Notes: generated by a model not told the origin, from the letters alone. Shown: positions 7,640-52,781, numbered from the stretch's first letter. The stretch is DNA of 64,000 nt from Escherichia coli (GCF_003334335.1 NZ_QOWQ01000020.1); one strand, 5' to 3'. Program-made: numbers and translations.

Positions 7640-7832
<193 letters not shown>

Positions 7833-13277: not shown

Positions 13278-15520
<2,243 letters not shown>

Positions 15521-15533
15521 TTCCGGTCTCCTG

Positions 15534-16289
15534 TCAGAACTTATAACCACGATGCAGCGCCACAACCCCTGCCGTCAGATTGTAGTAGTCGACACTTTCG
15601 AATCCGGCATCCTGCATCATGGCTTTCAGGGTATCCTGATCGGGATGCATACGGATGGATTCTGCCAGATAACGGTAGCTGTCGGCGTCGTTCGCGACCA
15701 GTGAGCCAATACGCGGCAGCACATGGAAGGAGTATGCATCATAGGCTTTGCTCAGCGGCTCGATAATTGGCTTCGAGAACTCAAGCACCAGCAGGCGGCC
15801 GCCGGGTTTCAGCACGCGATACATTGAACGCAGTGCTTTATCTTTGTCGGTGACGTTACGCAGACCAAACGAAATGGTGATGCAATCAAAGGTGTTATCC
15901 GGGAACGGCAGCGCCTCAGCGTTCGCCTGAACATACTCAACGTTGCCAATCACACCGATATTACGCAGCTTCTCGCGGCCCATTTTGAGCATGGATTCAT
16001 TGATATCAGCAAGGACCACTTTGCCAGTTTCTCCGACCAGGCGGGAGAATTTCGCTGTCAGGTCACCGGTGCCACCAGCCAGATCCAGCACGGTCTGCCC
16101 ACGGCGTACGCCGCTGCAATCAATCGTGAATCGCTTCCACAAACGATGAATACCAAATGACATCAAATCATTCATGACATCGTATTTTGATGCCACGGAA
16201 TGGAAAACGTGGGCGACCATATCCGCTTTTTGTTCCTTCGCGACGGTCTGAAAACCAAAGTGCGTCGTTTCTTGTAACTTATCCACCAT
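15534..16289 (-). CDS. ubiE: ubiquinone/menaquinone C-methyltransferase UbiE
   Basis: 251-aa ORF with SAM-binding motif [11 protein letters not shown]. Confidence 0.92.
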
Positions 16290-46077: not shown

Positions 46078-47271
46078 ATGACGGAACAAGAAAAAACCTC
46101 CGCCGTGGTTGAAGAGACCAGGGAGGCCGTGGACACCACGTCACAACCTGTCGCAACAGAAAAAAAGAGTAAGAACAATACCGCATTGATTCTCAGCGCG
46201 GTGGCTATCGCTATTGCTCTGGCGGCGGGCATCGGTTTGTATGGCTGGGGTAAACAACAGGCCGTCAATCAGACCGCCACCAGCGATGCCCTGGCTAACC
46301 AACTGACGGCATTGCAAAAAGCCCAGGAGAGCCAAAAAGCCGAGCTGGAAGGCATTATTAAGCAACAAGCTGCACAACTTAAGCAGGCGAATCGTCAGCA
46401 AGAAACGCTGGCAAAACAGTTGGATGAAGTCCAACAAAAGGTCGCCACCATTTCCGGCAGCGATGCTAAAACCTGGCTGCTGGCTCAGGCCGATTTTCTG
46501 GTGAAACTCGCCGGACGGAAGCTGTGGAGCGATCAGGACGTCACGACCGCTGCAGCGTTGCTGAAAAGTGCAGACGCCAGCCTGGCGGATATGAATGACC
46601 CGAGTCTGATTACCGTTCGTCGGGCAATTACCGATGATATCGCCAGCCTTTCTGCAGTATCGCAGGTGGATTATGACGGCATCATCCTTAAGCTTAATCA
46701 GCTTTCAAATCAGGTAGATAACCTGCGTCTGGCCGATAATGACAGCGATGGTTCGCCGATGGATTCAGACGGTGAAGAGCTTTCCAGTTCCATCAGCGAA
46801 TGGCGTATCAATCTGCAAAAAAGCTGGCAGAACTTTATGGACAACTTCATTACGATTCGCCGTCGTGATGACACCGCCGTACCGCTGTTAGCGCCAAATC
46901 AGGATATCTATCTGCGCGAAAATATTCGCTCTCGCCTGCTGGTCGCAGCACAAGCTGTACCGCGTCACCAGGAAGAGACTTATCGCCAGGCGCTGGAGAA
47001 CGTCTCCACCTGGGTACGTGCTTACTACGATACTGATGATGCCACCACCAAAGCGTTCCTCGACGAGGTGGACCAGTTAAGCCAGCAAAATATCTCGATG
47101 GATCTTCCGGAAACCCTGCAAAGCCAGGCGATGCTGGAAAAACTGATGCAGACTCGCGTGCGTAACCTGCTGGCACAACCGGCAGCGGGGACAACGGAAG
47201 CTAAACCTGCACCTGCACCTGCACCTGCACCGCAAGCTGATACTCCGGCAGCCGCGCCGCAAGGAGAATAA
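46078..47271 (+). CDS. hemX: HemX (membrane-anchored protein with coiled coil)
   Basis: 397-aa ORF with N-terminal TM, Q/A-rich coiled coil and C-terminal Pro-Ala repeat. Confidence 0.88.
47206..47229 (+). repeat. tandem hexanucleotide repeat (CCTGCA)x4 inside hemX
   Basis: Four perfect CCTGCA units followed by CCGCAA, encoding [10 protein letters not shown] near the HemX C-terminus. Confidence 0.85.
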
Positions 47272-47273
47272 CC

Positions 47274-48470
47274 ATGCTAAAAGTGTTATTGCTCTTTGTG
47301 TTGCTGATTGCGGGGATCGTGGTTGGCCCGATGATTGCCGGCCATCAGGGTTATGTGCTGATCCAGACCGACAACTACAATATCGAAACCAGCGTCACGG
47401 GCCTGGCGATCATATTGATTCTGGCGATGGTAGTGCTGTTTGCCATTGAGTGGCTACTGCGGCGGATCTTCCGCACTGGCGCGCACACCCGTGGGTGGTT
47501 TGTCGGACGTAAGCGTCGCCGTGCACGTAAGCAGACCGAACAGGCGCTGCTGAAACTGGCGGAAGGCGATTATCAGCAAGTTGAAAAGCTGATGGCGAAA
47601 AATGCCGATCACGCGGAACAACCGGTGGTGAACTATCTACTGGCTGCCGAAGCCGCGCAACAACGTGGTGATGAAGCACGCGCCAACCAACATCTGGAAC
47701 GCGCAGCGGAGCTGGCCGGCAACGACACCATTCCGGTAGAAATCACCCGCGTACGTCTGCAACTGGCCCGTAATGAAAACCATGCTGCACGCCACGGCGT
47801 GGATAAGCTGCTGGAAGTTACGCCACGCCATCCGGAAGTATTACGTCTGGCGGAACAGGCGTATATCCGCACAGGTGCATGGAGTTCGCTGCTGGATATT
47901 ATCCCATCAATGGCGAAAGCCCATGTTGGTGATGAAGAACATCGTGCAATGCTGGAACAACAGGCATGGATTGGCCTGATGGATCAGGCGCGTGCCGATA
48001 ACGGTAGCGAAGGTTTGCGTAACTGGTGGAAAAACCAAAGCCGGAAAACGCGTCATCAGGTAGCGTTGCAGGTGGCAATGGCGGAACATCTTATTGAATG
48101 TGACGATCATGATACTGCCCAGCAAATTATCATCGATGGCCTGAAACGCCAGTACGACGATCGCCTACTGCTGCCGATTCCTCGACTGAAAACAAACAAT
48201 CCGGAACAGCTGGAAAAAGTGCTGCGCCAGCAAATCAAAAACGTCGGCGATCGCCCGCTGTTGTGGAGCACACTGGGCCAGTCACTGATGAAGCACGGAG
48301 AATGGCAGGAAGCATCGCTCGCCTTCCGCGCAGCGCTGAAACAACGTCCGGACGCCTACGATTACGCATGGCTTGCCGACGCGCTGGACAGACTGCACAA
48401 GCCGGAAGAAGCTGCAGCGATGCGTCGCGACGGTTTGATGTTAACGTTGCAGAATAACCCGCCACAGTAG
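47274..48470 (+). CDS. hemY: HemY (TPR-like inner membrane protein)
   Basis: 398-aa ORF 2 nt after the hemX stop. Confidence 0.9.
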   Translation: MLKVLLLFVLLIAGIVVGPMIAGHQGYVLIQTDNYNIETSVTGLAIILILAMVVLFAIEWLLRRIFRTGAHTRGWFVGRKRRRARKQTEQALLKLAEGDYQQVEKLMAKNADHAEQPVVNYLLAAEAAQQRGDEARANQHLERAAELAGNDTIPVEITRVRLQLARNENHAARHGVDKLLEVTPRHPEVLRLAEQAYIRTGAWSSLLDIIPSMAKAHVGDEEHRAMLEQQAWIGLMDQARADNGSEGLRNWWKNQSRKTRHQVALQVAMAEHLIECDDHDTAQQIIIDGLKRQYDDRLLLPIPRLKTNNPEQLEKVLRQQIKNVGDRPLLWSTLGQSLMKHGEWQEASLAFRAALKQRPDAYDYAWLADALDRLHKPEEAAAMRRDGLMLTLQNNPPQ

Positions 48471-48517
48471 TTCCTTCTCACCCGGAGGCAAGCACCTCCG
48501 GGGCCTTCCTGATACAT

Positions 48518-48724
48518 AAAAAAACGCCTGCTCTTATTACGGAGCAGGCGTTAAAACAGGTCTGTATGACAACAAGTGGGTGCTTCACTCAACGTTGTGT
48601 CCATGGTGTCTGATGAGGCATAAGCGACATCTGTCAGTGGACGATAAGCACCGTAAACGGCTCTGCGTCATTCCGGAGTTTATGAGGCACTAAGGCGAAC
48701 ATAAGAGATGGAATGAGCATCTAC
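48518..48724 (-). ncRNA. glmZ: GlmZ small regulatory RNA (SraJ/RyiA), activator of glmS translation
   Basis: 207-nt minus-strand element beginning GUAGAUGCUCAUUCCAUCUCUUAUGUUCGCC and ending in hairpin AACGCCUGCUCC-GUAAUAA-GAGCAGGCGUU plus U7; matches my recollection of E. coli GlmZ and its hemY-aslA position. Confidence 0.85.
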
Positions 48725-49148
48725 TCGTTTATTATGCCACAGAGAATCGGGAAATAACATCCCTTAACACTTGTTATGAGATAATTCTGTAATCCTCTTT
48801 GCTTCCTGAGTAATAACTTCCTGAGTGAATATTTAACCTGAGCTTGATCCTACACATACTTATTATGAATGATAAAATTCATTCAATTAATAACACATAT
48901 ATTAATTGCCGTTAAAACTAAAAACAGCATCAATAATCAACGCGATATAATAAACCTGCCTTACATATCAACTGCGCCAGAGGTAGGATTGAAAACGCTC
49001 TCCTGATTTTCCAATTCATTTTCTGGATAAATAAATAATTTATTTTTGTCACTATTATTTATGTAATCATCCTGTCAGGGAGAGGGATCTCAATTATCAA
49101 TGCTTAATTACGTCATCATTTTGATGACATGAAACCGGAGCATTTTGC

Positions 49149-50804
49149 ATGGAATTTTCGTTTTCACCCAAACGTCTTGTTGTTGCTGTCGCCGCCGCTC
49201 TTCCTCTCATGGCCAGCGCAGCAGATACCCCGTCAACTGCCACCGCACGCAAAGGCTTTGCCGGATACGATCACCCAAACCAGTATCTGGTTAAACCGGC
49301 GACCACTATTGCCGACAATATGATGCCAGTAATGCAGCATCCGGCGCAGGATAAAGAAACCCAGCAGAAGCTGGCAGAACTTGAGAAAAAAACCGGTAAG
49401 AAACCGAATGTGGTTGTTTTCTTGCTGGACGATGTGGGCTGGATGGACGTCGGTTTTAACGGTGGCGGCGTGGCGGTGGGTAACCCTACACCAGATATCG
49501 ACGCCGTTGCCAGCCAGGGGCTGATTTTAACTTCGGCGTATTCTCAACCAAGCTCTTCCCCAACCCGCGCCACCATTCTCACCGGACAATACTCCATCCA
49601 CCACGGCATTCTGATGCCGCCAATGTACGGGCAACCGGGCGGGCTGCAAGGGTTAACCACGCTGCCGCAGTTGCTGCACGATCAGGGCTACGTCACTCAG
49701 GCCATCGGAAAATGGCATATGGGGGAAAACAAAGAGTCGCAGCCGCAGAACGTTGGCTTTGATGATTTCCGTGGCTTTAACTCGGTGTCTGATATGTACA
49801 CCGAATGGCGCGACGTTCACGTCAATCCGGAAGTGGCCCTGAGTCCGGACCGTTCTGAATACATCAAGCAATTACCGTTCAGCAAAGATGACGTTCATGC
49901 GGTGCGCGGCGGCGAACAACAGGCCATTGCCGACATTACGCCGAAATATATGGAAGATCTGGATCAACGCTGGATGGACTATGGCGTTAAGTTCCTCGAC
50001 AAGATGGCGAAGAGCGATAAACCATTCTTCCTCTACTACGGCACTCGTGGCTGCCACTTCGATAACTACCCAAATGCGAAATATGCGGGTAGCTCTCCGG
50101 CACGCACCTCGTATGGCGACTGCATGGTGGAGATGAACGATGTGTTCGCTAATCTGTATAAAACACTGGAGAAAAACGGTCAGCTTGATAACACGCTGAT
50201 CGTCTTTACCTCCGATAACGGACCGGAAGCCGAAGTACCGCCGCACGGACGCACCCCGTTCCGTGGTGCGAAAGGTTCGACCTGGGAAGGCGGCGTTCGC
50301 GTACCGACTTTCGTTTACTGGAAAGGGATGATCCAACCGCGTAAATCTGACGGTATTGTCGATCTGGCAGATCTCTTCCCTACCGCGCTGGATCTGGCAG
50401 GGCATCCTGGAGCGAAAGTGGCGAATTTAGTGCCGAAAACCACCTTTATCGATGGTGTGGACCAGACATCCTTCTTCCTGGGAACAAATGGTCAGTCTAA
50501 CCGTAAGGCCGAGCACTACTTCCTCAACGGTAAACTCGCTGCTGTGCGTATGGATGAGTTCAAGTATCACGTCCTGATTCAGCAACCTTACGCTTATACC
50601 CAGAGCGGATATCAGGGTGGATTCACCGGCACAGTAATGCAAACGGCGGGATCGTCGGTGTTTAACCTCTACACCGATCCGCAGGAAAGCGACTCCATCG
50701 GCGTGCGCCATATTCCGATGGGTGTACCGCTACAGACCGAAATGCACGCGTATATGGAGATCCTGAAAAAATATCCACCACGCGCGCAGATTAAATCTGA
50801 CTAA
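49149..50804 (+). CDS. aslA: arylsulfatase-family protein AslA (Ser-type signature)
   Basis: 551-aa ORF with signal peptide and sulfatase signature [11 protein letters not shown]. Confidence 0.88.
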
Positions 50805-52344: not shown

Positions 52345-52421
52345 TGGTCGGCGAGAGAGGATTCGAACCTCCGACCCACTGGTCCCAAACCAGTTGCGCT
52401 ACCAAGCTGCGCTACTCGCCG
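52345..52421 (-). tRNA. proM: tRNA-Pro (UGG)
   Basis: 77-nt reverse-complement sequence CGGCGAGUAGCGCAGCUUGGUAGCGCAACUGGUUUGGGACCAGUGGGUCGGAGGUUCGAAUCCUCUCUCGCCGACCA; cloverleaf and UGG anticodon evident. Confidence 0.93.
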
Positions 52422-52463
52422 AAATACTGCTTTTTGAATTTTTAGTTCAATTCTTTAAAGTCG

Positions 52464-52550
52464 TGGTGCGAGGGGGGGGACTTGAACCCCCACGTCCGTA
52501 AGGACACTAACACCTGAAGCTAGCGCGTCTACCAATTCCGCCACCTTCGC
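52464..52550 (-). tRNA. leuT: tRNA-Leu (CAG), long variable arm
   Basis: 87-nt sequence GCGAAGGUGGCGGAAUUGGUAGACGCGCUAGCUUCAGGUGUUAGUGUCC...CCUCGCACCA. Confidence 0.93.
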
Positions 52551-52570
52551 ATTGTCACAACTTCTAATAA

Positions 52571-52647
52571 TGGGGTGGCTAATGGGATTCGAACCCACGA
52601 CAACTGGAATCACAATCCAGGGCTCTACCAACTGAGCTATAGCCACC
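52571..52647 (-). tRNA. hisR: tRNA-His (GUG) with extra 5' G
   Basis: 77-nt sequence GGUGGCUAUAGCUCAGUUGGUAGAGCCCUGGAUUGUGAUUCCAGUUGUCGUGGGUUCGAAUCCCAUUAGCCACCCCA. Confidence 0.93.
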
Positions 52648-52704
52648 ACTACAAATCTTGTTACGCGGTATTACTACCACCGCAGCTCAAGCGCCGGGAC
52701 TAAA

Positions 52705-52781
<77 letters not shown>

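Follow-up and report, generated by a model that had tools for sequence, protein, structure and literature searches.

GlmZ, formerly SraJ or RyiA (Rfam family RF00083; b4456 in Escherichia coli K-12), is a small RNA of which 15 residues pair with glmS (PMC4152352), and this pairing is helped by Hfq (PMC4152352, PMC4737144). The primary transcript is 207 nt long and the processed form about 151 nt (PMC4152352). Inactivation depends on RapZ, which hands GlmZ to RNase E for cleavage, and the decoy RNA GlmY sequesters RapZ (PMC4152352, PMC4737144). Stem-loop 2 (SL2) of GlmZ is the recognition module to which RapZ binds, the single-stranded region is 26 nt long and is cut by RNase E 6-7 nt after SL2, and the oligo-U is a determinant of Hfq binding (PMC4737144). 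The gene is convergent with the hemCDXY operon (PMC3045617).

The nearest relative is GlmY (Tke1/SroF; RF00128, clan CL00011), which is homologous to GlmZ at 61% identity, has the same SL1-SL2-terminator plan and likewise binds RapZ via SL2 (PMC4737144). Unlike GlmZ, GlmY has a 12-nt single-stranded region without complementarity to glmS, is not cut by RNase E and shows no specific Hfq binding (PMC4737144). It also adjoins glrK-glrR, while the glmZ described here adjoins hemY. In Gram-positive bacteria the glmS ribozyme/riboswitch likewise puts the synthesis of GlmS under feedback by glucosamine-6-phosphate (PMC4152352). That element is a cis-acting, metabolite-dependent, self-cleaving leader, whereas GlmZ is a trans-acting sRNA with a protein adaptor; the two are unrelated, and we neither saw nor expected a relationship between them in sequence or structure.

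We analyzed a 64,000-nt stretch of E. coli DNA, hereafter the window, in which positions 48518..48724 on the minus strand are, with a probability of about 0.98, glmZ, the gene for the Hfq-dependent sRNA GlmZ. The locus and K-12 glmZ are identical throughout the hemY-aslA spacer, the 207 nt of the RNA included, and they share the 5' end, the three-stem-loop fold, the glmS-pairing region, the terminator, the sigma-70 promoter and the synteny with hemY. They differ in annotation only (172 nt in NC_000913.3, none in PGAP). With a sequence identical to the K-12 copy, the GlmZ element of the window is already known biology, and nothing that we found contradicts the identification. The glmZ genes of the Yersinia and Salmonella type belong to the same RNA family and have the same fold, pairing residues and hemY synteny, but they carry TGGCAC-N5-(T/G)TGC sigma-54 boxes and often TGTCN10GACA GlrR sites, which are missing from the window and the other Escherichia loci.

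Identity and boundaries of glmZ

The gene lies in the spacer between hemY and aslA (48471..49148). ORF ends and RefSeq annotation give this spacer the same size, 678 bp, that had been assigned to it in an earlier, sequence-only reading of the window. The names hemY and aslA are those in the RefSeq annotation of identical DNA.

47274..48470, plus strand: hemY, the convergent neighbor (ORF list and RefSeq annotation)
48518..48724, minus strand: glmZ full-length primary transcript, 207 nt, with +1 at 48724 and the 3' end in the U-tract 48518-48522 (from RF00083, MG1655 identity and the b4456 5' end)
49149..50804, plus strand: aslA, the divergent upstream neighbor, 424 bp from the glmZ +1 (ORF list and RefSeq annotation)

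An Rfam 15 scan of the whole window matched GlmZ_SraJ (RF00083) to 48724..48518 on the minus strand over model positions 1-214 of 214, without truncation, with 218.4 bits (E = 3.4e-56; gathering score 60), and a local permissive Rfam scan gave the same result. These are exactly the coordinates at which the sequence-only reading had placed a 207-nt minus-strand element, and the full-length covariance-model match (218.4 versus 60 bits) bears out the name GlmZ that it had given to this element. GlmZ_SraJ was the top-scoring family of clan CL00011, in which the GlmY model scored lower and its overlapping match was suppressed. A permissive scan of the spacer with E values up to 1 returned no other Rfam family, only sub-threshold chance matches.

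The 678-bp spacer is 100% identical to that of E. coli K-12 MG1655, C600 and many further strains. Window position 48724 (+1) is the first base of glmZ b4456 (NC_000913.3 3986432), so that alignment to the MG1655 glmZ locus, in agreement with the earlier identification, is exact over the whole spacer and gives the same 5' end as b4456. Read from 48724 to 48518, the minus strand starts GUAGAUGCUCAUUCCAUC. Over 6.7 kb, the window and an MG1655 derivative differ by 2 SNPs and a 12-nt indel in hemX (positions 47205-47216, 48419 and 45612); the indel consists of GCAGGT-type repeat units, one SNP is in hemY, and the spacer is without differences. Beyond the full-length covariance-model score and the K-12 identity with the same start, the element has the three stem-loops, the convergent hemY, the glmS-complementary single-stranded region and the Rho-independent terminator with 3' oligo-U that characterize GlmZ.

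Public annotation gives a different picture of the gene. NC_000913.3 lists glmZ as 172 nt (3986432..3986603), ending ...CCUGUUUU at what is window position 48553, just before the terminator stem, and PGAP-annotated E. coli genomes have no feature at the locus. We consider 207 nt to be the right length, since this is the length in the literature and the Rfam model extends through the terminator. The sizes expected in the earlier reading, a 207-nt transcript processed to about 150 nt, fit the published 207 nt and about 151 nt (PMC4152352, PMC4737144).

The same reading called glmZ the largest functional element of the window that an ORF-only pass would miss. This is correct for a single gene. 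As a unit, glmZ is exceeded by a 437-bp cluster of four tRNA genes at 52345-52781 on the minus strand (Arg-CCG, His-GUG, Leu-CAG and Pro-UGG), each of which is shorter than glmZ. The window also contains a full-length match to the Erse small RNA (RF02757, 319.5 bits, 14915-15166, minus strand) at the 3' end of a 216-aa ORF (14915..15565, minus strand); this match, of 252 nt, lies inside a CDS. A further match, to the REP-derived nucleoid-associated RNA element naRNA4 (RF02564, 92.1 bits), is found at 7692-7769 on the minus strand.

Conservation and distribution

Among 5426 complete E. coli genomes, 5425 match the 207 nt of glmZ at 99% identity or more. The 678-bp spacer is present in all 5426, at 99% identity or more in 2967, at 95-99% in 2284 and at 90-95% in 174. 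Since at least 99% identity is reached in 5425 genomes by glmZ versus 2967 by the whole spacer, the gene is more constrained than its flanks. The GlmZ RNA is under purifying selection and far more constrained than the surrounding noncoding DNA.

The variation of the spacer among E. coli is partly structural. Some strains have an additional 591-bp ORF, annotated as a hypothetical protein, between the glmZ terminator and hemY, which overlaps glmZ by 2 nt and is not in the window (for example NZ_CP023826.1 4337562..4338152; L126 806-1396). Two strains carry an IS1 in the aslA-glmZ interval, close to the end of aslA and well upstream of the glmZ promoter (NZ_CP068041.1, at L005 1602-2299, and NZ_AP027818.1). 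One of the 5426 genomes has a partial spacer match and no match to the 207 nt of glmZ, which may be a deletion or an assembly problem.

Homologs outside E. coli were collected by a pattern scan of a species-representative genome collection with an 18-nt SL2 motif, which returned 120 loci. A full GlmZ homolog was present in 95 of these (94 distinct sequences) from about 30 genera of Enterobacterales, including Escherichia, Salmonella, Citrobacter, Enterobacter, Kosakonia, Cedecea, Buttiauxella, Serratia, Yersinia, Pectobacterium, Brenneria, Proteus, Providencia, Morganella and others; the remainder were chance matches in unrelated phyla. The homologs of Raoultella (L073 2825-3084 and L079 4239-4497) measure about 260 nt from the 5' anchor to the terminator, about 53 nt more than all others.

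Synteny downstream of the gene is nearly uniform. Of the 85 homologous loci with at least 500 nt available beyond the glmZ 3' end, 84 have a convergent hemY there, and the gap between the two genes has a median of 82 nt. The window has the same arrangement, as the sequence-only reading had stated, with the hemY stop at 48470 on the plus strand and the glmZ 3' end at 48518 on the minus strand. The upstream neighbor varies among the homologous loci; a permease-like gene is the commonest (42 loci), and aslA is found there only in Escherichia, Superficieibacter and Pseudocitrobacter.

RNA fold and covariation

The three stem-loops of GlmZ were located as follows.

48660..48724, minus strand: stem-loop 1 (SL1), nt 1-65 (Rfam consensus and RNAalifold)
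48579..48652, minus strand: stem-loop 2 region, with helices 5-7 paired in 93.5-100% and compensatory changes at three pairs (e.g., UA:60/CG:33)
48518..48552, minus strand: stem-loop 3, the intrinsic terminator with its oligo-U tail; 11-bp stem 48552..48523 and oligo-U 48522..48518 (terminator scan)

Covariation was tested by projecting the Rfam consensus on a structure-blind MAFFT alignment of 93 sequences, from which the two Raoultella sequences were excluded; as a control, pairing partners were slid by 1-3 columns. Since the homologs had been selected with the SL2 motif, its columns cannot vary and carry no information on structure. Standard pairs filled 88.6% of cells versus 35-41% with slid partners, double-sided changes occurred in 171 cells versus 6-39, and the covariation score was 0.139 versus 0.036-0.069. 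In the basal helix of SL1, pairing holds in 91-100% of the 93 sequences, and two of its pairs show compensatory changes (UA:79/CG:14 and CG:90/UA:3); both helices of SL2 also contain covarying pairs in this alignment. RNAalifold, run without a given structure, arrived at SL1, SL2 and the terminator as well, together with a mini-hairpin of 3 bp in the single-stranded region, and gave 12 compensatory pairs. Between the consensus projection and RNAalifold, 11-12 pairs show compensatory changes.

In apical SL1 the register of Rfam fits poorly (27.7% and 63.4% paired for helices 3 and 4), and the RNAalifold register, which fits 91-93 of the 93 sequences, is better. The E. coli GlmZ alone folds at -60.8 kcal/mol (MFE z-score -3.33), and 1 of 200 shuffled sequences was as stable.

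The terminator stem has 11 bp, 7 of them G-C, and an 8-nt loop, and is followed by a T run; it is the sole terminator-like site in 48300..49300. A strong intrinsic terminator of a GC stem plus U7 had been described at the end of the element, and the terminator scan indeed finds the 11-bp stem and the U run there, two of the seven consecutive U being the last bases of the stem. Compensatory changes are seen at 8 of the 11 stem pairs among the 93 sequences. The three-stem-loop fold of GlmZ is supported by covariation.

Pairing with the glmS leader

Between SL2 and the terminator lie the single-stranded region and the sites within it.

48553..48578, minus strand: single-stranded region, 26 nt (nt 147-172), CACUUGUUGUCAUACAGACCUGUUUU, with the glmS-pairing residues and the RNase E cleavage site
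48575..48568 and 48562..48556, minus strand: the 15 glmS-pairing residues, nt 150-157 and nt 163-169, respectively
48574..48570, minus strand: RNase E cleavage site, about nt 151-155 (from PMC4737144)

The pairing target was the glmU-glmS intergenic leader from NC_000913.3. In the predicted duplex (-19.2 kcal/mol), nt 150-157 (UUGUUGUC) pair with glmS -29..-22 and nt 163-169 (GACCUGU) with -40..-34, which amounts to 15 residues and matches the published number (PMC4152352). In the predicted fold of the glmS leader itself, -35..-28 pair with -15..-12 and -9..-6, covering the GGA of the ribosome-binding site. When the GlmZ-bound residues of glmS are blocked, the Shine-Dalgarno region is open in the predicted fold, in agreement with the published model. 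RNase E cleavage falls within the first pairing block, which explains why processed GlmZ is inactive. The pairing residues GUUGUC and AGACCUG are near-invariant in the cross-genus alignment.

An accessibility-corrected scan ranked the published site best in GlmZ, at -16.6 kcal/mol net, and gave -7.1 as the best value for GlmY; the GlmZ score was equaled by 1 of 18 shuffles, so that statistical support from energy is weak. Two simpler measures were discarded. RNAduplex on full-length GlmZ and the glmS leader ignores intramolecular structure and returned meaningless whole-molecule duplexes, with GlmY even better than GlmZ. Raw duplex energies of sliding 26-nt segments failed to distinguish the true site: GC-rich segments of the terminator scored better, and of 5000 26-mers drawn at random from the window, 305 did equally well.

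Promoter and the sigma-54 box

Two promoter elements upstream of +1 were read from the sequence.

48755..48760, minus strand: sigma-70 -35 hexamer ATGTTA (-36..-31), matching TTGACA at 3 of 6 bases, with an 18-bp spacer
48731..48739, minus strand: putative extended -10, TGG-CATAAT, with TG at -15/-14 and the hexamer at -12..-7

A generic sigma-70 scan missed this promoter since only 3 of the 6 bases of its -35 fit the consensus; it was located by hand and with the help of PMC3045617. Mutation of the three consensus-matching bases of the -35 drastically cuts expression, mutation of the -10 abolishes it, and sequence upstream of -40 is dispensable (PMC3045617). The reading of the TG as part of an extended -10 comes from the sequence alone and is a suggestion. 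According to EMSA and lacZ data, glmZ of E. coli depends on neither GlrR nor sigma-54, and GlrR does not bind a glmZ fragment spanning -424..+32 (PMC3045617). The 424 bp of that fragment equal the aslA-glmZ interval measured in the window. Neither the sigma-54 box TGGCAC-N5-xTGC nor, even with one mismatch allowed, the GlrR site TGTCN10GACA occurs in the whole spacer of the window. The promoter of the window is the Escherichia-type single sigma-70 glmZ promoter, group III of PMC3045617, and its activity would be that reported there.

We scored 94 promoter regions, namely those of the window and of the 93 homologous loci with enough upstream sequence. A TGGCAC-N5-xTGC box is present directly upstream of glmZ in 82 of them, where it overlaps an AATAAT -10-like element; in other genera the position aligned to the extended -10 reads GTGCAATAAT and overlaps the sigma-54 -12 element. 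The 12 regions without a box are those of the window, E. coli (two loci), E. albertii, Superficieibacter, Pseudocitrobacter, Phytobacter, two Citrobacter youngae-like genomes, two Raoultella and Kluyvera genomosp. 3. The box-less homologous loci (11 of 93) are L025, L029, L094, L032, L042, L046, L054, L055, L073, L079 and L109. The survey agrees with the published scheme of three groups and adds a little to it.

The sigma-54 box is missing from all 5 loci that have aslA upstream and from 6 of the 88 scorable loci that do not. Among the box-less loci without aslA, three keep the common permease-like neighbor and two (Raoultella) have another, some loci being too short to tell. Box-less loci with other neighbors thus exist, and we rejected the aslA neighbor as a full explanation of box loss; the association is partial and phylogenetically shallow, resting on about 2-3 independent lineages. 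Because Phytobacter, the Citrobacter youngae-like genomes, Raoultella and Kluyvera genomosp. 3 are box-less as well, the distribution suggests that the sigma-54 box was lost several times independently upstream of glmZ.

A second hairpin near hemY

The sequence-only reading had mentioned a second stem-loop without a U-tract at about 48481-48503. We located it, within one base of that estimate, between the hemY stop and the glmZ terminator and separate from GlmZ.

48481..48502, no strand assigned: hairpin CCCGGAGG-CAAGCA-CCUCCGGG, 8-9 bp

Its folding energy is -17.4 kcal/mol for the plus-strand RNA and -18.3 for the minus-strand RNA, and it has no U-tract on either strand. The hairpin is conserved in the E. 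coli lineages, and E. albertii maintains it through compensatory changes (GGT/GCC to GAT/ATC), while in Citrobacter and Salmonella this interval is occupied by other hairpins rich in G+C. This is probably the 3'-end hairpin of the hemCDXY transcript, a function that we infer from these observations. We regard it as a tentative proposal, with the odds somewhat against it, that the hairpin was selected in its own right and that the loss of sigma-54/GlrR control in Escherichia is tied to the gain of aslA-aslB upstream. A selected hairpin, if this is true, could define or stabilize the 3' end of the hemCDXY mRNA and insulate the convergent hemY and glmZ units.

Alternative readings of the element

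GlmY and GlmZ are 61% identical and sit in one Rfam clan (CL00011), in which a lower-scoring overlapping match is suppressed, so one could ask whether the element is the paralog that acts as the RapZ decoy and not the base-pairing RNA. GlmZ_SraJ, however, scores best in the clan, and MG1655 has its glmY elsewhere, at 2691157..2691340 adjoining glrK. The element also has the 26-nt glmS-complementary region (net -16.6 kcal/mol versus -7.1 for GlmY) where GlmY has 12 single-stranded nt without complementarity (PMC4737144), and its synteny with hemY is typical of glmZ (see also PMC3045617). Neither the 12-nt noncomplementary region nor the glrK location of GlmY_tke1 (RF00128) is found here, and the GlmY reading is extremely improbable. 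Hardly more credible is an explanation in which the 3' hairpin is only a bidirectional terminator of hemCDXY and the upstream 170 nt are an untranscribed dead copy that resembles GlmZ by descent. The hairpin does lie just 48 nt past the hemY stop, on the opposite strand. On the plus strand, though, the stem is followed by UUAAAACAGG and not by a U-tract, which makes it a poor terminator for hemY, and the separate hairpin at 48481..48502 is nearer to the hemY stop. A dead copy would also not account for the conservation of the entire 207 nt at 99% or more in 5425 genomes while the flanks drift, for the intact and experimentally verified promoter at -36..-7 (PMC3045617), or for a sequence identical to that of the functional K-12 gene; we give this explanation next to no weight.

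A protein-coding explanation is very improbable too. The spacer contains several ORFs of 26-45 aa, and conservation could in principle come from a short one such as 48580..48693 on the plus strand (37 aa) or 48720..48634 on the minus strand (28 aa); some RefSeq records also show a hypothetical protein under the BLAST match. That protein is the separate, strain-specific 591-bp ORF downstream of glmZ, with its 2-nt overlap. No spacer ORF of at least 25 aa has a Shine-Dalgarno sequence, those outside glmZ have in-frame stops in E. albertii or divergent E. coli, and those inside glmZ are split or stopped in Superficieibacter. The many 1-2-nt indels and paired compensatory changes of the cross-genus alignment are the pattern of an RNA, not of codons. 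The earlier statement that the spacer has no credible ORF therefore stands, given ORFs that lack a Shine-Dalgarno sequence and are broken in relatives, and we retain GlmZ as the identity of the element.

Function and significance of glmZ

Identity, boundaries, fold, covariation, conservation, synteny, promoter type and complementarity with accessibility were computed here. Hfq dependence, cleavage by RapZ and RNase E, the decoy action of GlmY and promoter activity are carried over from publications on the identical K-12 sequence and would be expected to apply to this copy. The published K-12 work comprises Northern blots, 3' RACE, RapZ/RNase E cleavage in vitro, Hfq binding, dissection of the promoter and glmS reporter assays (PMC4737144, PMC4152352, PMC3045617). 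On this basis, a constitutive sigma-70 promoter (ATGTTA, 18-bp spacer, TGgCATAAT) would start transcription at 48724 and the intrinsic terminator would stop it at about 48518, yielding a 207-nt RNA with three stem-loops. Through 15 residues, the 26-nt stretch between SL2 and the terminator would pair with the glmS leader, at the left arm of the hairpin that hides the glmS ribosome-binding site. Pairing would open this hairpin, so that GlmS (glucosamine-6-phosphate synthase) would be translated and the mRNA stabilized. When glucosamine-6-phosphate is plentiful, the adaptor RapZ would bind SL2 and present GlmZ to RNase E, which would cut within the pairing stretch and leave an inactive product of about 151 nt. 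When it is scarce, the paralogous decoy GlmY would accumulate and sequester RapZ, and full-length GlmZ would survive. The sequence-only reading had GlmZ activating glmS translation together with GlmY and RapZ; the role of GlmZ is right, but the activation is not joint, since RapZ is the cleavage adaptor and GlmY the decoy (PMC4152352, PMC4737144).

GlmZ in this window adds nothing to existing knowledge of the RNA, and the by-products of the analysis are notes on annotation and comparisons of promoter evolution and of the hairpin. As PGAP has no feature at the locus and NC_000913.3 stops at 172 nt, a reading from ORFs or annotation only misses or truncates glmZ. The gene itself is a textbook case of posttranscriptional control: regulated decay, by way of the RNase adaptor RapZ and the decoy GlmY, sets the activity of this base-pairing sRNA, and the step under its control is the first committed one in the synthesis of the cell envelope.
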